Source: Mechercharimyces sp. CAU 1602 (GTDB lineage Bacteria > Bacillota > Bacilli > Thermoactinomycetales > JANTPT01). From it: a stretch of DNA of 32,000 nucleotides. This document shows, piece by piece, positions 1 to 16,606 of this stretch. Each line of letters starts with the position of its first letter. Within the stretch, counting starts at the first letter, position 1. Made by a program: the position numbers and the translations under genes. The stretch is from the NCBI RefSeq assembly GCF_024753565.1, contig NZ_JANTPT010000001.1, positions 1,659,336 through 1,691,335 on the forward strand, given 5' to 3'. Under the pieces are notes generated by a model. It ran no database searches, was not told the DNA's origin, and saw only the letters and a program-made list of their open reading frames with translations.

Positions 1-30
1 CTCACTAAAGTTCCTTTAAAAGCAATCATA

Positions 31-1350
31 TTGACGCAACCACTGTTCGATACATGGAGCTGTTCTCAGAGACAGTCGATCAAAATTTCAGTCGGTAAAA
101 AAACCTTGATTGCCCGTGTAATTCATCTACCCAGTAAGGAACACGCTGTCTATATCCATCCCACCCTCGCTCAACAACTCGCCCTCCCCCCTATTAAAGA
201 ACTGCGGGTTCATTACAGTGATCGACACCTTCGCTTTGGACCGGTTATCGCCATTCTCACCACGGGGTATACAGGCTCCTTTGATAAGCCATTTGGTAAT
301 CGCTCTAATTTATTTCGTAGTTTTTTGCTTGCCTCTAGACAAGAGCATCCCATATTCTATGTTTTTTCTCCTGAAATGGTGGACTGGAATACGAACACGA
401 CTACTGGCTGGTTTTATTATAAAAAAAGTAACGGTGACTATGGATGGAGTCGGCGCACAGCTCCCCTCCCTGATGTCATCTATGAGCGTATACCCAACCG
501 TAAAGCAGAATCTTTACCCCAAGTTCAATCTTGCCTAAAACGTCTGAAGGAATTAGGAGCCTGCCCAGTATTTAATCAAGGTTTCTTCAGCAAGTGGTCC
601 ATTCATGAAATCCTATATCAGCAATCAAAAACATCATACTTCATTCCCGAAACCTATATCTCACCCACTATCGAACTGGTTCGCTATATGGTGGATAAAC
701 ACAAGATGGTTTATCTCAAGCCTAATGGCGGGAGTTTAGGATTAGGGATATTACGCATTACGAAAAACAAGAAAAATGGTTATTTTTGTCGCTTTCGTAC
801 TGGTGACCGTAATATTCTACGTAAATTTTCTTCTATTAACAACCTGATTGAACATCATTTCGGACATCAAAAGCAACGCTTTAATCAATATCTTATTCAA
901 CAGGGAATTCGTCTAGTCAGATATCATGATCGCCCTGTCGATTTCCGCGTACACATGAACAAAGATCGACAAGGGAGATGGCAAGTAGTTGGTATTGGTT
1001 CTAAAGTGGCTGGCTTTGGTAGTGTCACTACTCACACGCGAACAGGTGGATCAATAGTCTCTACAGAGCAATTATTGACAGACATTTTCCAATCCCAAGC
1101 CGCATTAGCAGAAAAGGCAATTAAGCAAGCCTCCATCATTATTGCAGAGACGATGGAACAATACATTGATGGTCCCATCGGTGAACTAGGACTTGATATC
1201 GGAATTGACTGTAATCACCATGTATGGCTTTTTGAGGTGAACGCAAAGCCAGGTCGTCATATTTTCGTTCACCCCAGTTTAAAAGCGGCTGGATTTCAGT
1301 CCGCACGTATGATTACCGAATATAGTCTCAAACTAACCAATTTTGTGTAA
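31..1350 (+). CDS. YheC/YheD-family ATP-grasp protein (spore-coat-associated family), paralog 1. It may be 5'-partial, because the reading frame stays open to the left window edge.
   Basis: 439-aa ORF. It shares motif blocks with the next ORF: GPVIAILT, LPDVIYERIP, FNQGFFSKW, VYLKPNGGSLGLGILRI, QQGIRLVRYHDRPVDFR, GIGSKVAG...THTRTGGS and ELGLDIGID...VWLFEVNAKPG, the last being an ATP-grasp C-terminal Mg/ATP region. The TTG at 31 has no obvious RBS, and there is no in-frame stop in nt 1-30. Confidence 0.8.
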   Translation: MTQPLFDTWSCSQRQSIKISVGKKTLIARVIHLPSKEHAVYIHPTLAQQLALPPIKELRVHYSDRHLRFGPVIAILTTGYTGSFDKPFGNRSNLFRSFLLASRQEHPIFYVFSPEMVDWNTNTTTGWFYYKKSNGDYGWSRRTAPLPDVIYERIPNRKAESLPQVQSCLKRLKELGACPVFNQGFFSKWSIHEILYQQSKTSYFIPETYISPTIELVRYMVDKHKMVYLKPNGGSLGLGILRITKNKKNGYFCRFRTGDRNILRKFSSINNLIEHHFGHQKQRFNQYLIQQGIRLVRYHDRPVDFRVHMNKDRQGRWQVVGIGSKVAGFGSVTTHTRTGGSIVSTEQLLTDIFQSQAALAEKAIKQASIIIAETMEQYIDGPIGELGLDIGIDCNHHVWLFEVNAKPGRHIFVHPSLKAAGFQSARMITEYSLKLTNFV

Positions 1351-1362
1351 TGGAGGGAACCT

Positions 1363-2679
1363 ATGATGCTTCAAACTGGATGGCTGGCGTTGAATCCCAG
1401 AGAACAGTCGCCTGTATTCATCCCTCATAAACAGCAAAAAATTACCTTGCCGTCTACACTGCCGGCACAGATAGGTAAAAAGATGAAAGCGATGCTACCT
1501 GTTTCACACTCGACCGTGCATGCAACACCCTCTCCTCGTTATATGCCTACTCGCATCATTCAAGTCGCTCCTGATCAATACCGTGTCGGCCCATTTGTCG
1601 CAATCTTAACATCAGCCGATCGCCGCACTCCTTTTCGCGGCAACTCACTAAACTTTGCTGATTTAATCCGAATGGGACGGAAGATGGGGATTACCGTATT
1701 CGTATTAACACCCGAAGGCATTAAACCCTCTCGCTCTACCGTGAAAGGTTATCTTCTCGATCCTCGCTTCAAAACAAACAAATGGGTGTTAGGTACCCTT
1801 CCCATGCCAGATGTTATTTACAACCGAATTCCCTACCGCTCCTTTGAGGAGAGACCCTTGGAGCAACAGGCTCTCAAAATGTTAAACGAGCTCAACATCC
1901 CTATTTTCAATCCCTCGTTTTTTAACAAATGGACGTTGTACAAACTACTTCGGCGCTCCAGCTCGCTTACATCCCTACTACCCGACACGACACCTTGGAG
2001 TCATATCGATCGCTGTAAACAACTGATAAAAAAGCATCCCGTCCTTTACCTAAAGCCTGTTGATGGTAAAGCGGGCATCGGCATGATTCGCATCAATAAA
2101 CAAAATGATGCTTATGATGTTGTTTATCAAACAAAGTCGAGCCAAAAAAAATACCAGGGAATTTCCAATAATACTCTCTTTTCATTTCTAAATAAACTCA
2201 TACAGTCACACGAATATATCTTACAACAAGGAATTAGCCTTGCTCTATACCGCGATCGCCCTTTCGACCTCCGACTATTAGCCCAAAAAGATAATAATGG
2301 AAAATGGGGCGTTACTGGCATCGGTACTCGATTGGCTGGGAAGGAAGCGATTTCTACTCATGTGCCTCGAGGCGGATCTATTGAAGATACCACCGTGGTA
2401 TTAAGTGAAGTATTTGGTACCCATCATCCTTATATTTATAAAAAAGCAGAAAAGATAGGGATAAAAATCGCCAAGCATATCGAAGTACAGTCAGGACAAT
2501 CTTTAGGGGAAATGTCAATGGATATGGGTGTAGATAAAGAGGGAGAGATTTGGTTCTTTGAGGCTAATTCGAAACCAATGAAATTTGACGAACCACAAAT
2601 CCGTCAACTATCATTACAACGCATTCTCCAATACTCTCTCTATATTAGTGGCTATCAGCCGCAAGGGGAGGGGGAGTAG
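1363..2679 (+). CDS. YheC/YheD-family ATP-grasp protein, paralog 2
   Basis: 438-aa ORF. A GGAGGGA RBS lies in the 12-nt gap after the upstream stop. The motif set matches paralog 1: GPFVAILT, MPDVIYNRIP, FNPSFFNKW, LYLKPVDGKAGIGMIRI, QQGISLALYRDRPFDLR, GIGTRLAG...THVPRGGS and EMSMDMGVD...IWFFEANSKP. Confidence 0.85.
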   Translation: MMLQTGWLALNPREQSPVFIPHKQQKITLPSTLPAQIGKKMKAMLPVSHSTVHATPSPRYMPTRIIQVAPDQYRVGPFVAILTSADRRTPFRGNSLNFADLIRMGRKMGITVFVLTPEGIKPSRSTVKGYLLDPRFKTNKWVLGTLPMPDVIYNRIPYRSFEERPLEQQALKMLNELNIPIFNPSFFNKWTLYKLLRRSSSLTSLLPDTTPWSHIDRCKQLIKKHPVLYLKPVDGKAGIGMIRINKQNDAYDVVYQTKSSQKKYQGISNNTLFSFLNKLIQSHEYILQQGISLALYRDRPFDLRLLAQKDNNGKWGVTGIGTRLAGKEAISTHVPRGGSIEDTTVVLSEVFGTHHPYIYKKAEKIGIKIAKHIEVQSGQSLGEMSMDMGVDKEGEIWFFEANSKPMKFDEPQIRQLSLQRILQYSLYISGYQPQGEGE

Positions 2680-3165
2680 ATGGAGTTCCAAACTCTCACA
2701 TCTGAACAGTTTCAACGTATGTGTCCATACCTGATTCATTTTTTCAAAAACCAAGGTGAGAAGCGCATCACTTATCAATCCTTGCGCTGGCTACACAACC
2801 AACAAAATACTGGATATGAGTTAGGAACAATCGCCACTGTTGCCCTCGCTCAAAAAAGGCTAGCTGGCGCTCTCGTCCTGGGTAGATATGGAATAGAAGA
2901 GTCCTTGCTAGCCGTACACTCCACCTATCGTAATCAAGAAATTGCAGAGACCCTCCTGTTACAAGCGAAAGAGGAGTTAGGGAAATTATATGGTCGAATT
3001 GAGTGTGACAATTCCGCTAGCTTAAAAGCTTGCTTCAACGCCGGTTTAATGGCCTTTCGACTGATCCAGGGAACCACAGGAAAACCTACTTTATGGCTTG
3101 CAGGGGGCGACTGGAGCGAAGAAGAACTGGATCATTATCTAGATGAGAACTCCCTTCCGCTTTAA
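2680..3165 (+). CDS. Small GNAT-fold-like protein; a putative acyl/aminoacyl transferase, possibly with a degenerate CoA-binding loop
   Basis: 161-aa ORF. Its ATG directly abuts the upstream TAG (2677-2679), which suggests translational coupling. VHSTYRNQEIAETLLLQA resembles GNAT motif A (R-x-x-G-x-G/A) with E replacing the first Gly. IECDNSASLKACFNAGL resembles motif B (N..A..lY...GF). The assignment rests on motifs only. Confidence 0.5.
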   Translation: MEFQTLTSEQFQRMCPYLIHFFKNQGEKRITYQSLRWLHNQQNTGYELGTIATVALAQKRLAGALVLGRYGIEESLLAVHSTYRNQEIAETLLLQAKEELGKLYGRIECDNSASLKACFNAGLMAFRLIQGTTGKPTLWLAGGDWSEEELDHYLDENSLPL

Positions 3166-3167
3166 AG

Positions 3168-3222
3168 GGAGAACAAAGGACCCTGCCTGAATATGAGCGG
3201 GGTTCTTTGTCTATTTATTCAC
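3168..3222 (+). terminator. Putative rho-independent terminator after the ATP-grasp/GNAT operon
   Basis: Imperfect hairpin AGAACAAAGGACCCTGC ... GCGGGGTTCTTTGTCT with one bulge and two mismatches, followed by a T-rich TATTTATT tract. Confidence 0.4.
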
Positions 3223-3345
3223 CTGCACACTGTTCTTATAGTAAATATGAAAAAGGGTTGTACCTTTTTTTACTTTACGTCTACATATTCGTCCATCATG
3301 AATATAGGTATAAGTAGATACGAATTAGAAAGGGGCTGAGACATT

Positions 3346-6300
3346 TTGGCACAAAACAAAAAAAGACCAACGAAGCGCTCTGTAAAAGGGAAAAAAAATA
3401 TTACGCAGGAAGATGAACGTATACTTAAGCAAATTGTCCATCATCACGGTGACCCTGCACCGGTAAAACAGGCAACCATCTGGCTCTCCGATAACGGGGG
3501 CGCAACGAATACGAGAAAAAAAGGATCTGTGGAATCAAATCATCAATTACACCAACCAGATAACTATTCCCTTCAACAAGGACCCATTCGAGATGAAGAA
3601 GAATTCTCTTCCTCATCAATACAAGCGCAATCAGATGATGTTAGCTTTATCTCATCCATGATTGATCCTCATTCGCAAAGTGAGCCTGGTGCCCCACCCC
3701 CCTCCTATATTCGGGACTTTGCCGGATCTACAGAATGGGGTAACACCGAACTCGATGAGGACGAGGACTCAAACGACGAGGTCATCCATACTACAGACCA
3801 TACCTCCGAAACAGCCAATACGGGGAAGAAATCCTTTCTTCATACTGAATCTGTGGATGCTTCTCATATAAAAGCCGGAGCGATCCATGACCATCACATA
3901 TTACCACGCGCTGTTCAGGCAAAACATATCCAAAATCGCAGTATTGCAGGAAGACACTTATCTGAAAGCATCATTAGACGAATTACTACCCCCTATATCG
4001 CTCCGGCCTCTTTAAGTGGTGAACATCTGATGGAAGGGGTGATCTCTACTTCTCATCTTCAAAATGAAGCCATAACAGGCGGCAAAATCTCTGCCCATGC
4101 CATTCAATCGCAGCACCTAGAACATGGAGCGGTTGTAAATCATCATGTTCGTGATCACTCCATCAGTGGAAATAAATTATCACCCAACTCCATCACTACG
4201 GATAACATTGCTCCTCAAGCCATCCACAGCAAACATATCTCCTCTCGATCGATCGAGGGAGTCCACTTTAAAAAAGGAGCCATTCAAAGTGAGCATATAT
4301 TATCCAACGCAATTGCATCTCAGCACATCAATCCTAAGTCTATTGAAGCGAAGCATATTCTACCTCAGGCGATCCAAGAAGACCAACTAGCTAATGAGTC
4401 TGTAACTAGTAAAAAGCTGGCCCCCAAGTCGATTCAAGCCAAACATTTAACACAAGACTCTGTCAAAAAGAATCACATCAGTGCTCTTAGCATTACAACT
4501 GATCATCTGGACAGTCAAGCCGTTGTCGGTAAGAAAATAGCACCTCATGCGATTCAATCTCGACATATCGCTTCCCAGTCGATCACCAGCGACCATCTCT
4601 TTAACGACTCGATCTCAGGTGAAAAGATAGCTTCACATTCGATTGGAGAACAACACCTAATGAATAAAACTGTAAATAGTCAGCATCTGCAAGATGAATC
4701 CGTTCACACTCATCATCTAGGGAAGCAAGTGATCGCCAGCGATCACTTGGGAGAACAAATTGTAAATAGTGAACATGTGAATAATGAAGCAATCCAAGGC
4801 GAACACCTCGCCAAAGAAGCGATTTCAGGTGAACATCTCCAAAAAGAGGCCATCTCAGGAAAAAAAATAGCCCCACAATCGATTGGAGAACAACACCTCC
4901 TAGAGAAAACCGTCAACAGCCTTCATTTGCAAGACGAATCTATTCAAACACACCATCTGGGAAAGCAAGTGATCGCCAGCGATCACTTGGGAGAACAAAT
5001 TGTAAATAGTGAACATGTGAATAACGAAGCAATCCAAGGTAAACACCTTGCTAAAGAAGCGATTGCAAGTGAGCACCTTCAAAAAGGAGTGATCACTAGC
5101 GACCATATTGATGATGAGTCGATCGTTTCTACACACTTAAGTGCTCTTTCTGTTTCAGGAAAGCACTTAACTGAACGTTCTGTCGACTCAGATCATATTA
5201 AAGCAGGGGCTATAGATGGATCACACATCGCAAAAGAGAGTATTTCACCCAAACACTTGACTAAGGGAACGATCACCAGCGATCAATTAGCAAATGAAGC
5301 AGTCCATTCTAACCACCTCTCCCGCCAATCCGTCACTAGCCAACATATCGGATCCAACACCATTTCACCACACCATCTCTGTGCACAAACCATTCAGCAC
5401 AAACACCTCGACAATGGAGCGGTTACGGGAAAGAATTTAGCTGAACGGGCCGTCCAATCTACTCATTTGAGTGACCAATCTGTCAATAGTCAGCACATTG
5501 CTCCCGCTTCGATCCAAAGTGAACACCTCGCCCTCGGAAGCATTGCCTCCGAACACTTGAGTGATGACATTATGCAAAATTTTACTCCCCCATCAATTAC
5601 ACAAGATCACATTGCTAAAGATTCGATTACATCTGAACAGATTGCTCCGGGAGTTATTGATCAGACTCATATCCAAAAAAACGCTATCCATGGGGATCAT
5701 ATTGATGAGTTTTCCATTCAATCCCACCATCTTGCGATCCAATCAATCTTAGATGAGCACCTATCTGATGGATCTATTGGCGATACCCATATAAAACCCC
5801 AGTCCATTCAAAGTGAGCATCTAGCAGACTTCTCTGTTCACTCCCAACATTTAGCGATCGATTCAGTAACCAATGAGCAATTAGCGGACAATTCCGTGGA
5901 TCATATCCACCTTAAGCACCAATCTGTGCAGAGTAGACACATAGTGGATGAGGCCATTGATTCTACTCATCTCAAACCGACCATCATTCAAGGAAAGCAT
6001 ATAAAGAAACAAACACTCCAGGCACAACATCTCGCCCCTGACTCTATAACGGGTGAGCACCTAAAAGATGAATCTATCAAAACAAACCATATGCAAGCAG
6101 GTTCTATTCAAGGGCAGCATTTGGCTCACCGCTCTATTGCAACAGAGCACCTACGTGATCATACCGTAATTAGCGCACATCTTGGAGAAAAAGTTATCCT
6201 TGCCAAGCATCTAGCTCCTAGTATTATCGATTCTGATCACATTAGAAAACATAGTGTGCAAACCCAACACCTAACCGAACAAAGTATCGGTTCTGATCAC

Positions 6301-8997
6301 ATCAAAGAAGATGCCATCCAGCAACACCATTACGCCGCACACTCCATCAATCAAAAGCATCTTCAGCCCAATTCCATCTCCACCGAACATTTGAGTTCAC
6401 AAACCGTGCAGGCGAAACATTTAGCACCCTCTACTATTCACAACAAGCATCTTACTACCGCTGCCGTAGAAAGTAAACATATCGCTGACCAATCCATCCA
6501 GACGAAGCATTTAACAAAAGCGGCAGTACAAAGTGAGCATATTGCAAAGCAAGCCATCGGGTATGAACAATTACAAGAAAATATCGTGCACAGTGAAAAT
6601 ATTGCCGATCACTCCATTCTTACGCCTCACCTTACCCACCATGTAATCGCAGCCCAACATCTCGCACCACAGGCAATTCATTCTACGCACCTACAAACAG
6701 AAGCCATACAAAACGAACATATCGCCAAGCAGGCTATCCAGGCTCCGCACTTGGGCAAACATGTCATTTCAGATGAACACATCGCTCCCTATGCTATCAG
6801 CAATGAGCATTTGCAAGAAAATATAGTACACAGCAAAAACATCGCAGCTAAATCCATAGACACCAAACATCTCTCAAATGATATCATCACAACAGATCAT
6901 CTCACCGATCGCGCCATCAGCCACGAACAAATACAACAGGATGCTGTACATGGTGAACATATCGCCCCGAATTCCATTCATACAAAGCACCTCACCAGTC
7001 AAGCCATTACTGCCGACCACATCGCCGATCAATCCATCGGGCAAGCGCAATTGCAAGAAGATGCCGTGCAGGGGGAGCATATTGCTAATCTATCGATTCA
7101 AGCAAGACATCTCTCAAATGAAGCCATTACGACTGATCATATTGCACCCGCCGCCATTGCTTCGCCTCATCTTCAACCCGAAAGTGTCAGCAGTCAACAC
7201 TTACAGGCACAAACAGTTGATACAACACACCTTAAAGGAAATATCATCCAAAGCGAGCACCTTACACAACAATCCATTCAACATAAACACCTTCAATCCG
7301 ATACCGTTCACAGCGACAATATCGCTGATGAAGCAATCTCAGCCCGACACCTATCCAGAAATCTCATTTCAACAGAGCATATTGCACCCGCTGCGATATC
7401 CACCACCCATCTCCAGCCAGAAAGTGTGGGTAATCAACACTTACAAGCGGAAACCATCTCCACTTCTCACCTACAAGAAGACATCATTTACAGCCAACAT
7501 CTTACGCCAGAAGCAGTCGCCCATCGTCACCTACAACAACAAGCCGTTCAGAGTGAAAATATCGCCGATGATTCCATTTACACCAATCACCTCACCAATA
7601 AAGCTGTAACGGGTGAAAACATCGCCGATGGTTCCATCTACACCAATCACCTAACTAAAAAAGCTGTAACGGGTGAAAACATCGCTGATCAAGCAATTCA
7701 TCATTCACATCTTCAAATAAACAGTATCAGCGGGGAACATATACAAAGTGATTCCATCTCTGCTGCCCATCTTTCAAATGGGGTCATTACCAACCGTCAT
7801 CTCAGCAATGAAGCGATTCAAGGAGAGCATATCTCTCCTGATACAATCAGCAACATTCACCTCAAAATTGGCTCCATCATGCGAGATCATATTGCAGATC
7901 AGGCAGTCAGCACACGCCATATCGAAGCTGAAGCCATTAACAGAGCCCACATCGCACCACAAAGTATCCAAGCCAAGCATCTTACTACCAACAGTATTGA
8001 GAAAGATCATATACAACCGAATAGTATCGACAGTGAGCAGCTTAATCATGACGCAGTAACGGGCGAACACCTCAGCAAACAATCGATTCAACCGGAACAC
8101 CTTTCACCACGATCAATCCACAGCGAACATCTACAGGAACAAATCATTGACGGTAAACATTTGAAAAAAGGGAGTATCCAGTCTGAGCATTTGAATGATT
8201 GTACCCTTACCAGTAACCACATCGCCCCCGAATCCATTGCCACTGATCACCTACAGCAAGATGTGGTACATGGATTTCATATCGCTCATAACACAATTGA
8301 TGAAACCCATCTAGCTGAGCATGCTATTACCGAAACACAAATTGCTCCTGAAGCGATCACAGCGAAGCATCTTCAACCCTCATCTGTCCAGTCTAACCAT
8401 ATATCTCAAGGAAGCGTTACCTCTACTCATCTCGATAAAAATACGATTCATGCTGAGCATCTCTCACCCGATTCTATTGTGAGCACACACATTCAAGCTG
8501 AAGCCATTCAACAAAAGCATATCGCTTCACAAGCGATCTCGGCAGAACATATAACTAACGGCTCCATCGGCAACAAACATATAGCACCCCACTCCATCGG
8601 ACTGGATAAACTTAATTTTCATCCCAATATCATCTTCCATTCACCCTTTTCAGCACAATGTGGAACACACCATTTCCAAATTCAAGAGAATGAAACCAAC
8701 ACCCTCATTCATATTGATTTGGAGCAACACTTCACTGCCAGCGACTATGTTGTTGTCGCGATGACTGACAACAATGCTACTCAGGTTCACTTGGTAGATC
8801 GTCAACAAAAACGCTTTACTGTAAATGTACAACAATGCGCTCATAGTGAGGAAACAGATTGTCAAGGCTCCATCTCTTGGATCGCTATGGGAGCTTCTCC
8901 CGCTCATCAACATATTCGTCGCTCACAAAAAGATCTAAGCGATCTCTCTAGTATCCCTACCCCGTTTCAAAGCGACGGCAAGTGGACACATCCATAA
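3346..8997 (+). CDS. Giant (1,883 aa) histidine-rich decapeptide-repeat protein with a C-terminal WIAMG-containing ('WIAG-tail'-like) domain and no signal peptide
   Basis: Single uninterrupted 5,652-nt ORF. The TTG start lies 9 nt after GAAAGGGG. Hairpin terminators sit on both sides (3168-3222 and 9024-9061). The N-terminal ~170 aa are basic then acidic low-complexity sequence. About 157 decapeptide units follow. The last ~128 aa are non-repetitive and contain SISWIAMGAS. Confidence 0.85.
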   Translation: MAQNKKRPTKRSVKGKKNITQEDERILKQIVHHHGDPAPVKQATIWLSDNGGATNTRKKGSVESNHQLHQPDNYSLQQGPIRDEEEFSSSSIQAQSDDVSFISSMIDPHSQSEPGAPPPSYIRDFAGSTEWGNTELDEDEDSNDEVIHTTDHTSETANTGKKSFLHTESVDASHIKAGAIHDHHILPRAVQAKHIQNRSIAGRHLSESIIRRITTPYIAPASLSGEHLMEGVISTSHLQNEAITGGKISAHAIQSQHLEHGAVVNHHVRDHSISGNKLSPNSITTDNIAPQAIHSKHISSRSIEGVHFKKGAIQSEHILSNAIASQHINPKSIEAKHILPQAIQEDQLANESVTSKKLAPKSIQAKHLTQDSVKKNHISALSITTDHLDSQAVVGKKIAPHAIQSRHIASQSITSDHLFNDSISGEKIASHSIGEQHLMNKTVNSQHLQDESVHTHHLGKQVIASDHLGEQIVNSEHVNNEAIQGEHLAKEAISGEHLQKEAISGKKIAPQSIGEQHLLEKTVNSLHLQDESIQTHHLGKQVIASDHLGEQIVNSEHVNNEAIQGKHLAKEAIASEHLQKGVITSDHIDDESIVSTHLSALSVSGKHLTERSVDSDHIKAGAIDGSHIAKESISPKHLTKGTITSDQLANEAVHSNHLSRQSVTSQHIGSNTISPHHLCAQTIQHKHLDNGAVTGKNLAERAVQSTHLSDQSVNSQHIAPASIQSEHLALGSIASEHLSDDIMQNFTPPSITQDHIAKDSITSEQIAPGVIDQTHIQKNAIHGDHIDEFSIQSHHLAIQSILDEHLSDGSIGDTHIKPQSIQSEHLADFSVHSQHLAIDSVTNEQLADNSVDHIHLKHQSVQSRHIVDEAIDSTHLKPTIIQGKHIKKQTLQAQHLAPDSITGEHLKDESIKTNHMQAGSIQGQHLAHRSIATEHLRDHTVISAHLGEKVILAKHLAPSIIDSDHIRKHSVQTQHLTEQSIGSDHIKEDAIQQHHYAAHSINQKHLQPNSISTEHLSSQTVQAKHLAPSTIHNKHLTTAAVESKHIADQSIQTKHLTKAAVQSEHIAKQAIGYEQLQENIVHSENIADHSILTPHLTHHVIAAQHLAPQAIHSTHLQTEAIQNEHIAKQAIQAPHLGKHVISDEHIAPYAISNEHLQENIVHSKNIAAKSIDTKHLSNDIITTDHLTDRAISHEQIQQDAVHGEHIAPNSIHTKHLTSQAITADHIADQSIGQAQLQEDAVQGEHIANLSIQARHLSNEAITTDHIAPAAIASPHLQPESVSSQHLQAQTVDTTHLKGNIIQSEHLTQQSIQHKHLQSDTVHSDNIADEAISARHLSRNLISTEHIAPAAISTTHLQPESVGNQHLQAETISTSHLQEDIIYSQHLTPEAVAHRHLQQQAVQSENIADDSIYTNHLTNKAVTGENIADGSIYTNHLTKKAVTGENIADQAIHHSHLQINSISGEHIQSDSISAAHLSNGVITNRHLSNEAIQGEHISPDTISNIHLKIGSIMRDHIADQAVSTRHIEAEAINRAHIAPQSIQAKHLTTNSIEKDHIQPNSIDSEQLNHDAVTGEHLSKQSIQPEHLSPRSIHSEHLQEQIIDGKHLKKGSIQSEHLNDCTLTSNHIAPESIATDHLQQDVVHGFHIAHNTIDETHLAEHAITETQIAPEAITAKHLQPSSVQSNHISQGSVTSTHLDKNTIHAEHLSPDSIVSTHIQAEAIQQKHIASQAISAEHITNGSIGNKHIAPHSIGLDKLNFHPNIIFHSPFSAQCGTHHFQIQENETNTLIHIDLEQHFTASDYVVVAMTDNNATQVHLVDRQQKRFTVNVQQCAHSEETDCQGSISWIAMGASPAHQHIRRSQKDLSDLSSIPTPFQSDGKWTHP
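4611..5090 (+). repeat. Near-identical 240-nt (80-aa, 8-unit) tandem duplication inside the giant ORF
   Basis: 4641-4658 (gattggagaacaacacct) recurs at 4881-4898. The stretch ggaagcaagtgatcgccagcgatcacttgggagaacaaattgtaaatagtgaacatgtgaataa[tc]gaagcaatccaagg occurs at ~4721-4799 and again at ~4961-5039. At protein level, ISGEKIASHSIGEQHL...EAISGEHLQKEA matches ISGKKIAPQSIGEQHL...EAIASEHLQKG. Confidence 0.9.
6841..7560 (+). repeat. Three diverged copies of a 240-nt (80-aa) higher-order repeat
   Basis: Units starting at 6841, 7081 and 7321 begin IAAKSIDTKHLSNDIITTDH, IANLSIQARHLSNEAITTDH and IADEAISARHLSRNLISTEH. Copies 2 and 3 also share HIAPAAI(A/S)..HLQPESV..QHLQA(Q/E)T. Nucleotide matches are seen at 7141 vs 7381. 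Confidence 0.7.
7561..7680 (+). repeat. 60-nt (20-aa) tandem duplication
   Basis: 7561 atcgccgatgattccatttacaccaatcacctcaccaataaagctgtaacgggtgaaaac versus 7621 atcgccgatggttccatctacaccaatcacctaactaaaaaagctgtaacgggtgaaaac. At protein level, IADDSIYTNHLTNKAVTGEN / IADGSIYTNHLTKKAVTGEN. Confidence 0.9.
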
Positions 8998-9023
8998 ACC
9001 CACTTTATAAAAACAACTAAAAA

Positions 9024-9061
9024 AGCCACATAAAAGCGGGAATTCCCGCTTTTATGTGGCT
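9024..9061. terminator. Bidirectional rho-independent terminator between the convergent giant ORF (+) and spoVR (-)
   Basis: Perfect 17-bp stem AGCCACATAAAAGCGGG / CCCGCTTTTATGTGGCT with a 4-nt AATT loop. An A-run lies upstream and ACTTTTCT downstream. Confidence 0.85.
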
Positions 9062-9077
9062 ACTTTTCTATTCTAAT

Positions 9078-10496
9078 TTACAAGAAACGACGGTTGCATT
9101 TATTACCATTAAAGCTAAATAACACACTCCGTCCTTCAATCGTCGTTTCAATGTGTACCGTGCGCCCCCATAATTCAAATAGATGGGGTAGCGTCTTCTC
9201 CAAGTATTTCACATCTAGTTCGGTCCCCTCATACTGGTGTTTCAGATAAAGCTCTCGATTTTGCATATAATCACCCTCTTGTACCACCAAGTACGGATGT
9301 CCTCCGTTGATGCGGCTCGCCACCAACTGATCACGCACTTTTTCCCAATTTTTATCCTCTATGGTCCAATCATTACCTCTACGTCCGAAGAGATAAAGAT
9401 CAAGCTCATCTACCAGCTCCTTTGTCAAATAGTTACGGATGAAGGAAGTATCCGAATCCACCTCACGAATTTCAAAAAGTTTCTCCCGCCCACTACCTGG
9501 TTTTCGTCCATAACGCTCCTGTTCTTCTTCTGATGGCTCATCCCACCTGCGCTCAATATCCTCTAGCATTTTTAGCCCAAGGTAATACGGATTGATCGAT
9601 GTGCTAGACGGTTGGATAACAGATGCGTTAAGCTTTGCAAATTCCACTGTCTCCTCTTCTGTCAAATTCATTTCGCGTAAAATACGAATATGCCAATACG
9701 AAGCCCATCCCTCATTCATCACTTTTGTTTCCATCTGTGGCCAAAAGTACAGCATCTCTTCCCGTATCATCGTTAGTACATCTTGTTGCCACTCTTCCAA
9801 CACCTGACTATGGTGCATAATATACAAAAGCAAATCTTTCTGTGGTTCCATCTTACTCTTTTTGCGCTCTACCCTTGTCTCTTCATTCGCACGATCATCC
9901 AATCTCCACAATGCGTCATATGGAGCTGGGGCAGAAGGACGATTAGCTGCCCCCTCTTCTTTCTTATCCTCTTGCTCCCAGTCAGAATTCTGTCTCATTA
10001 AGCTTGGGTCAATATGTTCTTGCACCGCTAACGCATGATCTAAAAACTCTTCTACCTCTTGTTTCCCATACCGTATTTCATAAGAACGAATTCGCTCTGC
10101 ACTTGCCGCCATACTTTCCACCATATCACGCGATGTATGGGAGAACTGAACGTTATTTTTAAAGAAGTCACAGTGTGCCAATACATGGGCAACAATTAGC
10201 TTATTTTGAATCAGGCTGTTTCCTTCCAACAAAAAAGCGTAGCACGGATTAGAGTTGATCACCAGCTCATAAATACGGCTTAAATTCAGATCATACTGAA
10301 GTTTCATTCTATAAAATGACTTTCCAAAACTCCAGTGCGAAAATCGGGTCGGCATTCCATATGCACCAAAAGTATATATAATGTCTGCAGGGCAAATCTC
10401 ATAACGCATGGGGTAGAAATCCAGTTTAAAACCACGTGCGATTTCAGTTATTTCATCAATTGCTCGCTCCAACCCTTTAAGATCTGCTGATGTCAC
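9078..10496 (-). CDS. spoVR: Stage V sporulation protein R (SpoVR family)
   Basis: Family-typical sequence: [60 protein letters not shown] place the start at the GTG at 10496 (VTSADLKG...) because AAAGGGGAG lies 8 nt upstream. The ORF-track start at 10526 would add 10 aa with no RBS. The resulting 472 aa is close to the B. subtilis SpoVR length as I recall it. Confidence 0.9.
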
Positions 10497-10644
10497 GCTT
10501 GCAACTCCCCTTTCCCAGTGGGTCACACAGACTCACGGTGATATTTATCATTATACGTAGAGAGCAACGGAACGTTTCTAGACATCTGCTTTTTAATCCC
10601 ACCATTATACCGCTACAGTTACCTTAAAGCGGATCTTTTCATGC

Positions 10645-10676
10645 GTAAAAGGTGTGATCGCATGACCACACCTTAA
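10645..10676 (-). terminator. Putative terminator after kynB
   Basis: Minus-strand hairpin AAGGTGTG ... CACACCTT (8 bp) starting 5 nt after the kynB stop, followed by TTTTAC. The U-tract is short. Confidence 0.45.
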
Positions 10677-10680
10677 AAAA

Positions 10681-11301
10681 TTATAAGGGGCGTAATACGG
10701 CCCTTACTGGACTCCCATCCGCTTCTTTAAGCGGTAGTGGCAATGCAATCAGTTCATACTTGCCCGCATCTATTTGATCCAATACCGCCCCCTCTAAAAT
10801 ATGTATACCGGCCGCATGCAAAGCATGATGTGCACGCAATTCCTTACTATCTAGTGGATCGACCGAAGGCACGTCCAAACCTAATAGACGCACGCCCTTG
10901 TCCGCTAGATAAGGAGCAATCTCCGGCTCCATATAAGTGATCGACTCAGGAAAAGAAGAATAATCCTTCCAAGCGTCCGTACGAATAAAGAGGCGCTCTA
11001 CACCTGTTAAATCATAAGTTAATAACTCTTGAACTCCAATTGACGTACGCTCAGGCAAGTGTAGGACCAGCACTTCACCCACATACAAGCTGAGATCTAA
11101 ATCTAAAATCTTTGCGCCCTCTTCATCAAAGTGAAAAGGGGCGTCCACATGTGTACCTGTATGCGTACTAAGATTTATTTGCCCTACATTGACCGAACCG
11201 CTTTCCTCCTTTGTCCATGTCAAATCATAAGAGAAAGGAGTATCTCCTGGCCATACGGGCATCCCTTCCTGGAGCGGCTGAGAAATATCGATCCACTTCA
11301 T
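10681..11301 (-). CDS. kynB: Kynurenine formamidase (arylformamidase, cyclase family)
   Basis: 206 aa. The [10 protein letters not shown]...MPVWPGD...STHTGTHVDAPFHF metal-binding signature is typical of bacterial KynB. Its ATG overlaps the kynU stop (TAATG). Confidence 0.85.
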   Translation of the reverse strand: MKWIDISQPLQEGMPVWPGDTPFSYDLTWTKEESGSVNVGQINLSTHTGTHVDAPFHFDEEGAKILDLDLSLYVGEVLVLHLPERTSIGVQELLTYDLTGVERLFIRTDAWKDYSSFPESITYMEPEIAPYLADKGVRLLGLDVPSVDPLDSKELRAHHALHAAGIHILEGAVLDQIDAGKYELIALPLPLKEADGSPVRAVLRPL

Positions 11302-12584
11302 TATGCCACCACTTCACGTTTTTTTTCGTATTTCTCATATCGTTTTTCAACCATAATACGCTTCAATACTTGCACTGTCTGCCACACCTCAAGATACGAG
11401 GTGTAGAGTGCGATTGGAGCTAATCGTATAATATTAGGTTCGCGGTAATCTGGGATGATGCCTTCTTCTTTTAATGCTTTACAAATCCGTATCGCCTCTT
11501 CATGCACCAGTGCAATATGCCCACCACGCCGGTGATCCTCTGTCGGGTTCATAAATGAAAACCCTGTATTCCCCATCTCTGCTTGAATCAAATCCATCAT
11601 ATATCGTGTCATATGCAAAGACTTCTCTCTAATCTGTTCGATCCCGGCTTCTTCAAAAATCTCCAAAGAACCATATAGTGGGGCCATGCTTAATACATGC
11701 GGTGTCCCGATCTGAAATGCTCCTGCCGTTTGCGCAGGCTCCAACTGATGTTTCATATCAAATTGCTTCTCTTTATCCGAACTAAACCATCCGGCTAGAG
11801 CAGGCGTCGCCCCTAAATGCTTCTCGTGAACATACAATCCTGCTACCCCGCCAGGTCCACTATTTACATATTTATAGTGACACCAGACCGCAAAGTCAAC
11901 ATCCCATCCATTAAAAGCATGGGGAATAGCTCCAATCGAGTGACAAGCATCAAACCCGATGACGATTCCATTCTTCTTTGCTTCAGAGGTGAGTCGCTGA
12001 ATATCTAACAATTGCCCACTGCGATACAACACTGTAGGAAGAAGGATAAGGGCTACTTCATCTGTCATCATCTCAATGATGTCTTCTTCTTCTATCATCT
12101 TTCCATCCCGACTCAGAACTTGTAACAGGTGTTCATCTGGATCAAATCCATGGATGCGCAATTGGCTTTGCAGTGCATAAATATCTGAAGGGAACGTCAA
12201 CGTGTCTGCTAAAATCTTGGTTCGCTTCCCTTCCGGTCGATAAAAGGTAGCCACCAATTGATGAATATTGATCGTCGTGGAACCTGTTACAATCACTTCA
12301 TCTGGTAACGCTCCAATCAGAGGAGCTACTTTTGCCCCCAAGGTTTCTGCCATCTCATACCATGGTCGCTTCCCTTTCATCCACCCATCTATGCCAAACT
12401 GGCGCCAATCCGCCATCACGTCTAATAGCGTTTGTTCTGCTCGCTTAGACATCAAACCAAGTGAATTGCCATCCAGATAGATGGTTCCTTCTGCCTGATA
12501 AAACTCTGTCTTATAACGTGCCAGTTCATCTTCTTGATCTAATTCCACAGCATACTGGCGGCTCAAATTATCCAAGTTGGTCAC
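11301..12584 (-). CDS. kynU: Kynureninase (PLP-dependent)
   Basis: Aminotransferase class V-like sequence with kynureninase-typical blocks: [38 protein letters not shown] and GWFS....F. I place the start at the GTG at 12584 (VTNLDN...), 7 nt after AAAGGAAG. The ORF-track start at 12635 would overlap the kynA 3' end by 25 nt. Confidence 0.88.
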
Positions 12585-12610
12585 TTGCACACTTCCTTTC
12601 TCTCTTCGTT

Positions 12611-13450
12611 CTACAATTTCGTCCTTAGCTCCCACAATTCTGGAAACATACGTTGATCAATAACTTGCTTTAAATAGGAAACACCTGAAGATCCTCCCGT
12701 ACCCATCTTCATCCCAATCACTCGTTCCACTGTTTTCATATGACGGAAACGCCATTGTTGAAAACGATCTTCAAGATCAACTAGTTTCTCTGCTAAATCA
12801 TATAAGTCCCAGTACTTCTCAACATCGCGATACACCTGTAACCAAGCTTCCTCCACACTAGGGTGAGCAGCATAAGGCTCCTTCCAATCCCTATTCAACA
12901 CAGCGGAATCAACACTTATCCCTCTTTGTGCAAGTGCTTGGATCGACACATCGTAGATGCTAGGTTCGTGTAACACCTGCTCTAGTCGTTTATACCGTGG
13001 TTGATCATGTTGGTAAATTTCTAAGATGCGCTCATTTTTCTTTCCGAGGAGGAACTCAATCTCACGATTTTGGAACGATTGAAAACCGGATGATTTCCCA
13101 AGGGCATCACGAAATTCCATGTATTCGGAAGGTGTAAGTGTCGACAATACGTCCCATGATTGGATTAACTGAAGTTGACTTTTTGAAACCCGTGAAAGCA
13201 TTTTAAAAGAAGGCTCTAATTCACCTCTACTAATACATGCTTTTGCCTCGGATAGCTCATGAATCATCAGTTTCATCCATAGCTCACTTGCTTGATGAAT
13301 AATGATAAATAGCATCTCATCATGATGGCCTGACAATCGCCGTTGGCTGGATAAGATCTGATCTAACTGTAGATATTCTCCGTAACTCATTTCCTCTTTA
13401 AAATCGGTGTGCATCCCTTTCTCCCACACTTGTCCTTGCTTCTTTTCCAT
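12611..13450 (-). CDS. kynA: Tryptophan 2,3-dioxygenase
   Basis: [15 protein letters not shown]...[19 protein letters not shown] and [11 protein letters not shown] are TDO hallmarks. I place the start at the ATG at 13450 (MEKKQGQ...), 8 nt after GGAGG. The result is 279 aa. Confidence 0.9.
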
Positions 13451-13702
13451 TGTAGGACCTCCATACTCATAATCCATTCTTCTCTTTTAGGATACCGAAT
13501 GCAAAGCAGATAATCACCCCCATATTTATACTCGTCTACAATCCATACTATTCAAACTTATCCACTTGCTTTCATATGACACCCATATCTTAAATGAATG
13601 GCTTTATCCTGTAATACCCGCATAAGCCTAGACACAATATGAAGGAAAGGAGTAATCTATATTTAAGCATATGCAATCCACAGCGGTTTAAAGGAGTGGA
13701 AT

Positions 13703-14578: not shown

Positions 14579-16573
14579 TTATTCACCGGAAGCATTGCTT
14601 TTCCCACGAGGACCACGAGCCCCCCGAGGACCACGTGGTCCGGTAGGACCGGTCATCCCTGTCGCTCCTGTGGCTCCTCGTGGTGCAGGTCTTCCTAGCT
14701 TTAACACAAAAGCATCTGCGAACTGACTCTTATTTTCTGTCTGGAAAGCACCTGGTGTCGTAGGGAAATCCGTAGATAGTGTAAACCCAACCACAGCCAC
14801 CTGTTGATTTTTCTGAACAGCAATATCAATGCCAAAATCATTAGCATCACCACCATAGTAGGTGGAATAAGAAATACCTGTCCCGGCAAAACTCATCTGC
14901 GTAATAAAAGCATCGGCTGAGCCCCGCAAGCGATCTTGGAAGGCATCTGAGGTGAGTGGAAAATTAGCAGAGCGTGTCACTCCTGTTACCCACGCCCCCT
15001 CGAAAGCATCGATGGCAACCCCGGATCCCAGCTCCTCACCGCTTCCTCCCAGGTAGGTAGAGTAAACCTGCGCTGTCCCTGATCGATTCAATTTGCATAC
15101 ATACGCGGAGTTTACTCCTGGAAAGAGAGTCTGAAATGCACCACTGGTTACAGGGAAGTTCGTTGAAGACGTAGAGCCTACAATATATGCTTGATCGCCA
15201 CCATCTATAGCGATAGCACTAGCATCTTCAGCATCGCTTCCTCCCAAGTAAGTAGAGTACACCAGCCCTGAGCCATCTGGATTTAGTCTGGTTACAAAAG
15301 CATTTTGGGACCCTCGCAACTGCGTCTGAAATGCTCCTGACGTAACAGGGAAGTTCGTCGACCTGGATATCCCACTTACGAAGGCATTACCTTCGTTGTT
15401 AACAGCAATCGCTTCTCCTTGGTCCGATTGAGCTCCACCTAAAAATGTGGAATATCGTAACGCGCTCCCTGTTGCGTTTAATTTCGTTGCATATGCAGCT
15501 CCTCCACCTGGAAGTATCGTCTGAAATGCTCCTGAGGTAACCGGAAAATTAGGAGAGGTCGCAATCCCTGTAATATATGAATTCCCTTCGGCGTCAAGAG
15601 CGATATCTTCGCACGAATCAGGAAATTCTCCACCTAAGTAAGTGGAAAAAACAAGGGATGTCCCCTGACTATTAAGACGCGTAATAAAAGCACTCGTAAA
15701 ACCACCCACTGTCGTTTGAAATGCTCCCGACGTTATGGGGAAGTCTATCGAATCTGTAATACCTACTGCAACCGCTTCATCTCCATCAACGGCGATGCCT
15801 CTCCCTGTAGTGATGCAAATACCGCCCAAATACGTAGAGTATACAAGTGAACTACCCGTCTGATTTAGTTTACTAACAAAAGCACTTGACACACCACGAT
15901 TTACCGTTTGAAATGCCCCAGTAGTGACTGGGAAATCATCCGAATCGGTTACGCCCGTTACATAAGCATTGCCGCTGGTATCCACAGCGATCCCCATTCC
16001 GCCTGCTTGTAAATCAGAACCATCAAATCCACTTCCGCCTAGAAGTGTAGAGTAAAAAATAACGGGGTCGATCACAAGTGAGTAACGAGGGTCGTATTCA
16101 CCTACCTCAAAGCCAAGAGCGCCCCCCTCACTGACAACAAAACCTGCTTCAACCTCCACCTTCTTCCCTTCGATCCATTGGTAACTGTACGGTTTTTCTT
16201 CTTTTACTAACACCTGCTGTGTATGAAGAAACAAGTGACCGTCCTTATCCACTTCCATCTTGGTCGCACCCTCATACGTAAGTCGTACAGAACTTATCTC
16301 TGCTCCAGGACTTACAATGACATCGTACTTCAGCTGATCGCCTTGACGATAAAAAACCATATCCACACCAGGAACTATCTGCTCATAAACAGCTCGTTTT
16401 CCCTCATCTACTAACTTTACTCCTTTTCCCTTCGGCAACATCAGCCGCAGAAAAGGGGGGTAGCGAAGCTCCTCCTGCTGCACTCCTGACTGAATTAGTG
16501 AAAAGTTGACCTCGTTATGAACAAAATCTACTTTAACGTCGTTAACGTCCATCTCTTTGTTCGTAGTCTTCAT
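14579..16573 (-). CDS. SBBP-type seven-blade beta-propeller repeat protein with a C-terminal collagen-like (G-X-Y) tail (paralog A, 664 aa)
   Basis: The ATG at 16573 lies 9 nt after AAGGAG. Seven repeats of ~55-65 aa have the form A[VI]D..GNAY[VI]TG.T.S..FP[VI]T.GAFQT...G...AF[VI].[KR]LN..G..L.YSTYLGG. The N-terminal ~170 aa contain GVDMVFYRQGDQLKYDVIVSPGA, which resembles the domain commonly preceding SBBP propellers. The C-terminus reads GATGATGMTGPTGPRGPRGARGPRGKS. Confidence 0.85.
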   Translation of the reverse strand: MKTTNKEMDVNDVKVDFVHNEVNFSLIQSGVQQEELRYPPFLRLMLPKGKGVKLVDEGKRAVYEQIVPGVDMVFYRQGDQLKYDVIVSPGAEISSVRLTYEGATKMEVDKDGHLFLHTQQVLVKEEKPYSYQWIEGKKVEVEAGFVVSEGGALGFEVGEYDPRYSLVIDPVIFYSTLLGGSGFDGSDLQAGGMGIAVDTSGNAYVTGVTDSDDFPVTTGAFQTVNRGVSSAFVSKLNQTGSSLVYSTYLGGICITTGRGIAVDGDEAVAVGITDSIDFPITSGAFQTTVGGFTSAFITRLNSQGTSLVFSTYLGGEFPDSCEDIALDAEGNSYITGIATSPNFPVTSGAFQTILPGGGAAYATKLNATGSALRYSTFLGGAQSDQGEAIAVNNEGNAFVSGISRSTNFPVTSGAFQTQLRGSQNAFVTRLNPDGSGLVYSTYLGGSDAEDASAIAIDGGDQAYIVGSTSSTNFPVTSGAFQTLFPGVNSAYVCKLNRSGTAQVYSTYLGGSGEELGSGVAIDAFEGAWVTGVTRSANFPLTSDAFQDRLRGSADAFITQMSFAGTGISYSTYYGGDANDFGIDIAVQKNQQVAVVGFTLSTDFPTTPGAFQTENKSQFADAFVLKLGRPAPRGATGATGMTGPTGPRGPRGARGPRGKSNASGE
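14597..14677 (-). repeat. Collagen-like G-X-Y coding tract (9 triplets) at the 3' end of paralog A
   Basis: Decoded codon by codon from the minus strand: GAT GAT GMT GPT GPR GPR GAR GPR GKS, followed by NASGE and the stop. Confidence 0.85.
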
Positions 16574-16606
16574 TTCTCCTTCTCCTTTCTTCTCGAGGAT
16601 CTTCCC

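Follow-up and report, generated by a model that had tools for sequence, protein, structure and literature searches.

Three genes at the left end of the analysed window, a 32,000-nt stretch of DNA from Mechercharimyces sp. CAU 1602, appear from comparison with orthologous loci to be the last members of a conserved operon of five genes, which encodes four YheC/D ATP-grasp ligases and a small GNAT-fold protein. The favoured explanation, at a probability of about 0.55, is that this is a mother-cell sporulation operon, the four diverged ligases and the GNAT of which build or attach a peptide on the spore envelope. YheC and YheD, which are conserved among the spore formers of the Bacilli, have figured in lists of coat proteins for twenty years, and we know of no reaction assigned to them. 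The family was reportedly defined in the amidoligase paper of Iyer et al. 2009, and a literature search on YheC/D chemistry returned nothing relevant on substrate, product, or activity. In many lineages, an expanded and ordered set of ligases with intact catalytic residues is encoded, coupled to a dedicated GNAT where one is present. The label of a coat-associated protein can thereby be turned into a testable hypothesis, namely an ATP-dependent pathway of peptide ligation and capping that operates during coat assembly.

The left edge of the window cuts through the operon. The first gene (ORF1, 1..1350, forward strand) encodes a YheC/D ATP-grasp ligase (PF14398) of paralog class C and lacks its 5' part in the window. 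An earlier note on this DNA had placed its start at a TTG at position 31, which is an internal codon: the deposited protein P0093 (459 aa) is 100% identical to ORF1 and begins 30 nt to the left of window base 1, the latter being the first base of codon 11. ORF1 is followed by a 12-nt spacer (1351..1362, forward strand), read directly as tggagggaacct, which carries the Shine-Dalgarno motif GGAGGG of the second ligase gene, a class D paralog (ORF2, 1363..2679, forward strand; PF14398). At the coupling junction (2663..2682, forward strand, also read directly), a purine-rich Shine-Dalgarno sequence at 2663-2676 lies inside ORF2, the TAG stop codon of ORF2 occupies 2677-2679, and the ATG of ORF3 follows directly at 2680. 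ORF3 (2680..3165, forward strand) encodes the small GNAT-fold protein. The first description of the 12-nt gap and of the TAG-ATG junction thus holds, and the proposed co-translation of ORF2 and ORF3 is supported by other genomes: of 54 loci, 20 have class D and GNAT genes that overlap by 4 nt, and in the others the two lie no more than a few tens of nucleotides apart. Exact-sequence look-ups with ORF3, the identical entry P0001, and P0093 recovered no DNA to the left of the window; therefore, the missing upstream genes were inferred from orthologous loci.

These loci were collected with a profile made from a 12-sequence subset of a 40-sequence GNAT alignment, the full set of 40 being too diverse. 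The scan yielded 55 GNAT-anchored loci from Thermoactinomycetaceae, Brevibacillus, Aneurinibacillus, Ammoniphilus, Caldalkalibacillus, and Numidum. In every one of these about 55 loci the GNAT gene lies downstream of a run of YheC/D paralogs; among loci found through the GNAT, the GNAT is an obligate partner of YheC/D. As a rule the genes are arranged A-B-C-D-GNAT, frequently with neighbours that overlap by 4 nt, and this order is kept strictly in at least six genera or families, with paralog classes checked by class HMMs and intergenic gaps of 0-20 nt inside the operon. Further YheC/D genes are located upstream in every orthologous locus that has enough upstream sequence. The initial description of two paralogs plus a GNAT has to be revised, as it captured only a fragment: ORF1 (60% identity to Polycladomyces paralog C) and ORF2 (47% identity to paralog D) are orthologous to the third and fourth genes of a four-paralog operon. 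Paenibacillus cremeus carries classes A to E without a GNAT, and the operon of Aneurinibacillus lacks class C; therefore, the set is not a rigid assembly line.

Both window ligases belong to the YheC/YheD family. PF14398 (ATPgrasp_YheCD) matches ORF1 with an E value of 2.6e-77 and ORF2 with 1.4e-76 (260 and 258 bits, cut-off 26.8). In P0093 numbering, both contain the ATP-binding lysines K208 and K250, the D324-x-R326 motif, and the Mg-binding residues D409 and E422-x-N424, roles that rest on analogy to other ATP-grasp enzymes. Degeneration of the active site, which the earlier note had named as a finding that would count against its proposal, is thus absent from both proteins. K208, K250, Q310, D324, R326, K331, D409, E422, and N424 are each 100% conserved across classes A to E in more than 200 sequences. 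Positions 175, 177, 202, 345, 355, 357, and 429 (same numbering) are class-specific among the paralogs, and ORF2 combines an intact catalytic core with the class D signature H355, P357, and K429. This pattern points to several active ligases with differing specificities.

The proposed kinship with peptide- and protein-modifying ATP-grasp enzymes is supported at the level of fold. For the AlphaFold model of ORF1 (pLDDT 93.9), the top PDB match is RimK (5zct; E 9e-11, TM 0.66 normalised to the target), and the best folds also include graspetide ligases (7mgv, PsnB, MdnC), GshB, Ddl, TTL, and ArgX. In sequence profiles the proteins fall into PF14398, and matches to any solved ligase are marginal. 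RimK, a poly-alpha-L-glutamate ligase, lengthens ribosomal protein S6 at its C-terminus. YheC/D have the ATP-grasp catalytic core in common with it and may likewise act on a protein or peptide carboxylate. Unlike RimK, they comprise several diverged paralogs, possess an additional N-terminal domain, and belong to a sporulation-specific setting, and the RimK family model TIGR00768 reaches only 12.4 bits (cut-off 143.4), so that the resemblance is structural only. The extra domain, a beta-rich segment of about 70-90 residues, is present in classes A, C, and D and received no assignment in a Pfam search. One ortholog bears the label 'MazE antitoxin' in a JGI record, which hints at an AbrB/MazE-like barrel.

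By its fold, ORF3 is a divergent but genuine GNAT, in agreement with the earlier description as GNAT-like. Its single-sequence Pfam match is weak (E 6e-4, 20.5 bits, below the cut-off of 27), but orthologs carry precomputed GNAT matches, and the family profile retrieves solved GNATs including phosphinothricin acetyltransferase (E 1.1e-5). The AlphaFold model, for which the alignment held only 3 sequences, has a pLDDT of 76.5 and 163 PDB matches at E <= 0.001; the best 50 of the 163 are all GNAT acetyltransferases, with TM values of about 0.6. Clustering at 50% identity leaves 90 representatives of the family. Cofactor motif A of ORF3 reads R84-N-Q-E87-I-A89, in which the Arg and the final Ala fit (Q/R)-x-x-G-x-(G/A) and the first Gly is replaced by Glu, as had been noticed before. 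On this ground, the protein had been suggested to be a non-canonical transferase or an adaptor. Gly occupies position 87 in 40 of 54 orthologs and is missing from 14, and R84, Y104, D110, N111, and S114 as well as a T-G-K-x-T motif are invariant in all 54. Accordingly, an active transferase with a relaxed loop is the more likely of the two, and Glu87 as the mark of a non-enzymatic adaptor was rejected. The invariant residues of the family lie in the cofactor loop and in an N-terminal G-x-x-R-I-T segment, a pattern to be expected if the enzyme is active and its acceptor fixed. Glu87 itself is unique to the window protein, as is A108E, and the two substitutions, G87E and A108E, might impair the GNAT in this strain.

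A sporulation setting is suggested by the orthologous loci. Upstream of the first operon gene, the motif AC-N16/17-CATAnnnT(A) occurs in 46 of 48 loci (0.07 expected per locus); it is a consensus match rather than a mapped start site, and the -10 elements of sigma-E and sigma-K are similar. The motif matches the sigma-K consensus of B. subtilis. Genes for a YlbF/YmcA-like protein and a DUF445 protein are also found upstream of the operon, and these presumably correspond by gene order to B. subtilis yheA and yheB. Given these neighbours, the operon probably occupies the ancestral yheC/yheD locus. Sigma-K promoter logos have been described for B. subtilis, and yheC and yheD are mother-cell genes that depend on sigma-E and SpoIIID (PMC517825). 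Within the family, a coat localisation is known only for B. subtilis YheD, a basement-layer protein that depends on SpoIVA (PMC7725329). For the window, whose operon promoter lies outside it, sporulation control would follow from the orthologous loci only. The operon shares with yheC-yheD of B. subtilis the PF14398 family, probably the locus, and putatively the mother-cell sporulation setting. It differs in that four (sometimes five) specialised paralogs replace two and in that an NlpC/P60 gene, a gene for a giant WIAG-tail protein, or both follow the operon in this lineage. B. subtilis presumably also lacks the small GNAT gene.

Under the favoured explanation, each of the ligases A to D would use ATP to convert a carboxylate into an acyl-phosphate and join the activated group to an amine. 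As the four would differ in their acceptor and donor pockets, they would act in sequence or on different sites, two modes that look alike at the sequence level. Their joint product would be a short chain of amino acids or a peptide, assembled on or attached to some part of the spore envelope, which would be either a protein of the coat layer or a peptidoglycan-like peptide. Finally, the GNAT, whose translation is coupled to that of ligase D, would acylate and so cap a free amino group of the ligase product. The giant WIAG-tail protein may be an additional substrate in lineages that carry its gene. Classes A to E and the GNAT represent a defined enzyme set for biochemistry, with Brevibacillus and Aneurinibacillus as tractable hosts and a handful of candidate substrates. 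Should the substrate be a protein, bacterial spores would have a post-translational modification of a new kind.

The giant protein is also the basis of a tentative and rather doubtful alternative, in which ligases and GNAT serve as dedicated writers of this protein, adding amino acids, for example to its acidic side chains or C-terminus, or acylating it. As described before, its gene lies just downstream on the same strand (3346..8997) and encodes a repeat protein of 1883 aa, and its C-terminal WIAG-tail domain was verified with NF012201 (residues 1770-1849, 58.1 bits, cut-off 33). The imperfect terminator-like hairpin reported between the two was recovered as well: a stem-loop at 3171-3210 (-24.2 kcal/mol, z = -3.2), which went unreported in a simple scan for terminators, precedes a U-rich tract with interruptions and probably forms the operon terminator (3171..3220, forward strand). 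The giant gene is regarded as a separate transcription unit. In favour of dedicated writers, a giant gene follows the operon on the same strand in 20 of 55 loci from about 11 genera, all of them Thermoactinomycetaceae, and an independent pairing was detected on the unrelated metagenomic contig L060, where, in another genomic context, a single divergent YheC/D gene lies immediately upstream of a 2020-aa WIAG giant. Many giants have tails rich in Glu, Asp, Ser, and Thr with an acidic last residue, often ending in W-D, which resemble the tails extended by RimK and TTL enzymes. By sequence inspection the giants lack a signal peptide, which would keep them in the same compartment as the ligases.

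However, the operon is intact without a giant within 10 kb in the other 35 of 55 loci, including several genera of Thermoactinomycetaceae and all other families. Examples are Shimazuella, Laceyella, Seinonella, Planifilum, and Numidum as well as Brevibacillus, Aneurinibacillus, Ammoniphilus, and Caldalkalibacillus. B. subtilis yheCD presumably has no neighbouring WIAG giant either, which also counts against dedicated writers. Conversely, no YheC/D gene lies within reach of the giants in the WIAG contexts L055/56/58 and L059, while one further WIAG contig was too short to judge. Apart from the hairpin after the GNAT gene, an opposite-strand NlpC/P60 gene often intervenes, and the conserved motif upstream of the giant gene is one of its own, distinct from that of the operon. 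An assignment of this motif to sigma-K was rejected, because AC and CATA stand 14 nt apart in it, which is too close. Gene order within one family may simply be inherited, and spoVR is conserved there equally. The WIAG-tail region had no match in a word-indexed homology search, and a literature search on WIAG-tail proteins found nothing relevant. Of the synteny expected in the earlier note, the link between YheC/D and the GNAT thus holds in all of the about 55 GNAT-anchored loci, and that to the giant is confined to 20 loci of one family; the writer-plus-substrate module remains weakly supported, by this adjacency and by L060. The giant may be a lineage-specific substrate, not the defining one.

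An unlikely alternative is that no protein is modified and that the operon makes a free or wall-linked non-ribosomal peptide or poly-amino acid, such as a gamma-glutamyl-type polymer or a modified cortex stem peptide, and that the NlpC/P60 peptidase encoded nearby would trim or turn over this product. NlpC/P60 genes lie close to the operon in 32 loci in arrangements that differ across lineages, and neighbourhood clustering identified spoVR as a conserved neighbour in 29 loci; in the window, spoVR (9078..10526, reverse strand; PF04293, E 2.5e-155) is convergent with the operon region. Formation of a normal cortex in B. subtilis requires SpoVR. Two structural neighbours of the ligases, Ddl and GshB, act on small molecules, and four ligases with distinct pockets would suit a stepwise peptide assembly. 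Yet no NlpC/P60 gene adjoins the operon in this window or in Brevibacillus, and the conserved core contained, by neighbourhood clustering, no gene for a transporter, a racemase, or a carrier. The N-terminal domain of classes A, C, and D looks more like a module for docking to a macromolecule, and B. subtilis YheD resides in the coat basement layer, not in the cortex (PMC7725329).

A bolder version of protein modification, likewise improbable, regards YheC/D as bacterial counterparts of the TTLL enzymes, the polyglutamylases and glycylases that modify tubulin. TTLL paralogs divide the initiation and the elongation of amino-acid chains on the acidic tails of a structural protein. Correspondingly, an initiator/elongator set with an acetyltransferase would decorate or cross-link fibrous spore-surface proteins, including the giant pentapeptide-repeat WIAG-tail rods with their acidic, often W-D-terminated tails. 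Both groups are ATP-grasp enzymes, and TTL is among the fold matches of YheC/D. In contrast to TTL and TTLL, YheC/D are bacterial, their PF03133 signal is faint and below cut-off (15.4 vs 20.1 bits), and the target tail is only a candidate. If true, coat assembly or the surface properties of the spore would be set by a post-translational code that depends on ATP.

Graspetide-like cross-linking is considered very unlikely. Here, coat proteins would be linked internally or to one another by the ligases through side-chain ester or isopeptide bonds, and the GNAT would acetylate an N-terminus. Spore coats are heavily cross-linked, and graspetide ligases (7mgv, PsnB, MdnC) rank among the top structural matches. 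Microviridin clusters also combine two paralogous ATP-grasp ligases, MdnB and MdnC, with a GNAT-type N-acetyltransferase, MdnD (PMC5934393). In contrast to these clusters, the operon contains no genes for a precursor peptide, a protease, or an ABC exporter, occurs in spore-forming Bacilli behind a putative sporulation-type promoter, and encodes ligases of another ATP-grasp family, PF14398, with marginal profile matches to solved ligases. Across the loci, no conserved extra ORF of at least 70 aa that might encode a leader-bearing precursor was found within or beside the operon, and RimK scores equal to or above the graspetide ligases. Finally, YheC/D could have lost catalysis and serve as structural coat components, the operon merely supplying building blocks, in line with the description of B. 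subtilis YheD only as a coat-associated protein (PMC7725329), but this is extremely improbable, and degenerate, non-catalytic paralogs were rejected, since full conservation of the nine core residues in five classes would be unexpected without catalysis.

Three adjacent genes lie on the forward strand at the left end of the window. The first two encode YheC/D-like ATP-grasp proteins with about 31% identity to each other, ORF1 with coding bases from position 1 to its end at 1350 (PF14398, E 2.6e-77) and ORF2 at 1363-2679 (PF14398, E 1.4e-76), and the third, ORF3 at 2680-3165, encodes a small GNAT protein. ORF1 and ORF2 are separated by a 12-nt spacer (1351-1362) containing a GGAGGG ribosome-binding site, and the TAG of ORF2 (2677-2679), which is preceded by a purine-rich Shine-Dalgarno sequence, directly abuts the ATG of ORF3. 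A stem-loop with an interrupted U-tail follows at 3171-3210 (-24.2 kcal/mol, z -3.2), and on the same strand a 1883-aa repeat protein with an NCBIfam WIAG-tail domain, referred to as the giant, is encoded at 3346-8997. The genes, their spacing, the hairpin, and the giant are thus correctly described in the earlier note. Behind the giant gene, spoVR is encoded on the opposite strand.

The three genes had been described as the operon, but they are a part of it: the window edge cuts both ORF1 and the operon, as judged from the deposited ORF1 product and from orthologous loci. The deposited protein P0093 has 459 aa and its codon 11 begins at window base 1, so that the gene starts 30 nt to the left of the window and the TTG at position 31 is ruled out as start of ORF1, being an internal leucine codon. 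In Polycladomyces abyssicola, four YheC/D genes (478, 374, 459, and 438 aa) are followed by the GNAT gene, an NlpC/P60 peptidase gene on the minus strand, a 1841-aa giant, and spoVR on the minus strand. ORF1 and ORF2 are orthologs of the third and fourth of these ligases, with 60% and 47% identity, respectively.

At 50% identity, the exhaustive library contains 90 representatives of the GNAT family. A scan with the GNAT alignment, limited to one genome per species, yielded 51 loci, which were mapped with locally built HMMs. In every mapped locus, YheC/D paralogs are located directly 5' of the GNAT gene on the same strand, and wherever the contig is long enough they form a set of four classes, A (~478 aa), B (~370 aa), C (~458 aa), and D (~440 aa), with ORF1 belonging to class C and ORF2 to class D. 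The D and GNAT genes overlap by 4 nt in 20 of 54 loci. Carriers are found among Thermoactinomycetaceae, Brevibacillus, Aneurinibacillus, Ammoniphilus, Caldalkalibacillus, and unnamed Bacilli. Variants include the order A, B, D, GNAT, E in Aneurinibacillus, a fifth class E located 3' of the GNAT gene in Ammoniphilus and some metagenome-assembled genomes, classes A to D with GNAT in Numidum, and classes A to E without GNAT in Paenibacillus cremeus. In many loci, genes for a YlbF/YmcA-like protein, a DUF445 protein, and an MBL-fold hydrolase are located upstream of the operon on the opposite strand. B. subtilis yheA and yheB belong to the same two families, YlbF-like and DUF445, which suggests that the operon corresponds in position to yheCD, with the ligases expanded from two to four.

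An NlpC/P60 gene adjoins the operon in 32 loci (e.g. 10528-11190 on the minus strand of locus L001), mostly as the next gene after GNAT and convergent with the operon. It shares the strand of the operon in Aneurinibacillus, and between GNAT and giant it is absent in the window, Marinithermofilum, Lihuaxuella, and Salinithrix.

Just 5' of the first ligase gene, the motif AC-N16/17-CATAnnnT is present in 46 of 48 loci, 37 of which have the full CATAnnnTA; from base-order shuffles of the same regions, only 0.07 and 0.02 occurrences per locus, respectively, are expected. This motif corresponds to the B. subtilis sigma-K consensus, whose -10 element is resembled by that of sigma-E. Logos of the sigma-K consensus have been described (PMC517825). 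In B. subtilis, YheD belongs to the basement layer of the coat and depends on SpoIVA (PMC7725329). Taken together, the motif and the YheD data make expression in the mother cell during sporulation the best assumption for the operon; for the window genome, whose own promoter is located outside the window, this timing is predicted from the orthologous loci.

The ATP-grasp active sites are not degenerate, a possibility that had been raised in the earlier note: among over 200 aligned YheC/D paralogs, the nine core residues K208, K250, Q310, D324, R326, K331, D409, E422, and N424 (P0093 numbering) are 100% conserved across all five classes. This conservation effectively excludes a purely structural role of the YheC/D proteins. 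Other positions are constant within a class and vary between classes. Position 355 separates C and D, which have His, from A, B, and E, which have Asn. At position 357, class C has Arg, class D Pro, class B His, and class A either Ala or Ser, and the classes also differ at 175, 177, 202, 345, and 429. Judged by these residues, the ligases look active and specialised. The AlphaFold model of P0093 (pLDDT 93.9) has its best PDB matches among RimK, RiPP-associated graspetide ligases, D-Ala-D-Ala ligases, glutathione synthetase, TTL, and ArgX, while a sequence search found no solved structure closer than E 0.03.

An additional N-terminal β-rich domain of ~70-90 residues is present in classes A, C, and D; it is missing in B and E and had no match in a Pfam search. 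The domain may be an AbrB/MazE-like or cradle-loop barrel with which the ligases dock a macromolecular substrate. In P0093, residues 1-90 (11-90 at window 1-240) form an all-β domain of two similar ββαβ halves, which recurs in A, C, and D at all loci; one JGI record labels an ortholog 'MazE antitoxin'.

By its own sequence, ORF3 has GNAT matches only below the Pfam threshold. However, its orthologs carry GNAT matches, a family profile of 40 sequences matches solved GNATs (best phosphinothricin acetyltransferase, E 1e-5), and for its AlphaFold model (pLDDT 76.5) the 50 best PDB matches listed are GNAT acetyltransferases only; together these results show that ORF3 is a GNAT. Invariant in the family are an N-terminal G-x-x-R-I-T segment, the residue R84 that opens the cofactor loop, Y104, the pair D110-N111, S114, and a C-terminal T-G-K-x-T. 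The earlier note had correctly read Glu for the first Gly of the CoA loop (position 87) and had proposed a non-canonical transferase or an adaptor. In the alignment of 54 orthologs, this Gly is kept in 40 and replaced by Glu in the window protein only. At position 108, Glu is again confined to the window protein, against Ala in 53 of the 54, and the window protein is the most deviant copy among them. The family residues favour a transferase that is active and whose loop tolerates substitutions, while cofactor binding may be altered or reduced in the window strain.

Most likely, the operon encodes a multi-enzyme system of the mother cell. Working via acyl-phosphates, four specialised ligases would act in sequence or in parallel and link amino acids or a short peptide to an acceptor in the spore envelope, with the GNAT, translated together with ligase D, capping an amino group of the product. 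Alternatively, the enzymes could synthesise a peptide or polymer that is either free or attached to the wall, a reading linked to the neighbouring NlpC/P60 and spoVR genes. A further alternative is cross-linking of the graspetide type; the microviridin cluster likewise combines two ATP-grasp ligases with an N-acetyltransferase (PMC5934393).

A third alternative, the proposal of the earlier note, is that the YheC/D pair and the GNAT are dedicated to modifying the giant. Adjacency supports it in part: 20 of the 55 GNAT-anchored loci, every one from Thermoactinomycetaceae, have a giant homolog 3' of the operon, usually beyond a convergent NlpC/P60 gene. In the other 35, the operon is intact without an adjacent giant; Shimazuella, Laceyella, Seinonella, Planifilum, Numidum, and every carrier outside Thermoactinomycetaceae lack the neighbour and retain operon and catalytic residues. 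The giant therefore cannot be the obligatory substrate, unless its gene is located elsewhere in those genomes. The giant gene is also preceded by a separate conserved motif, GTTTCCA-N13/14-GATGAATATACCTA, unlike the operon promoter. The fuller form GTTTCCA(C)-N13/14-(G/C)ATGAATATA(C/G)(C/G)TA is found at ~3290-3325 in the window and in loci L001, L004, L008, L014, L018, L020-L030, and L060; a reading as sigma-K promoter was rejected because the AC-to-CATA spacing is too short.

A metagenome scan from the WIAG side yielded six loci, L055-L060. No YheC/D gene was found near the giant in L055, L056, and L058, which represent one organism type, or in L059, and the L057 contig ends 272 nt 5' of the giant gene. 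In the metagenomic contig L060, a WIAG giant of 2020 aa is directly preceded, in the same orientation, by a lone divergent YheC/D gene, whose 402-aa product has the catalytic motifs and falls outside classes A to E. The gene order at 2926-12356, asnS, dnaD, YheC/D, giant, cytidylyltransferase, and UDP-GlcNAc 2-epimerase, is unrelated to the operon. The sugar genes are a nonulosonic-acid-type set, so that the WIAG fibre may be glycosylated there. Since this second, independent adjacency is unlikely to be due to chance, a facultative functional link between ligase and giant stays alive. Many giants have acidic tails after the WIAG domain, frequently ending in W-D, and RimK-like and TTL-like enzymes extend acidic C-termini; the tails as ligase targets are a lead rather than evidence.

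The 10-residue unit of the giant, x-x-x-H/K-L/I-x-x-x-S/A-I/V, resembles two pentapeptide repeats, with weak NCBIfam pentapeptide-repeat matches. In orthologs (L001, L008, L013-L029), the N-terminus is basic and leads into a common D-E-x-I-L-E-E-L-I motif, and no obvious signal peptide was seen in them or in the window protein.

The gene families are already known and annotated, by NCBI as 'YheC/YheD family endospore coat-associated protein' and 'N-acetyltransferase', and Iyer et al. 2009, who defined the family, reportedly predicted a role in modifying spore-wall proteins. The searchable literature yielded no account of the strict A-B-C-D-GNAT gene order, the GNAT family dedicated to these ligases, the pockets that distinguish the YheC/D classes, the conserved sporulation-type promoter of the operon, or the two independent pairings of YheC/D genes with WIAG-tail giants.

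Further downstream, the minus strand of the window encodes a kynurenine pathway cluster of three genes at 10681-13477 (tryptophan 2,3-dioxygenase, kynureninase, and a kynurenine formamidase-like cyclase-family protein) and, at 14579-18829, two large proteins in tandem, of 664 and 740 aa, which both contain DUF7948 and SBBP β-propeller repeats.
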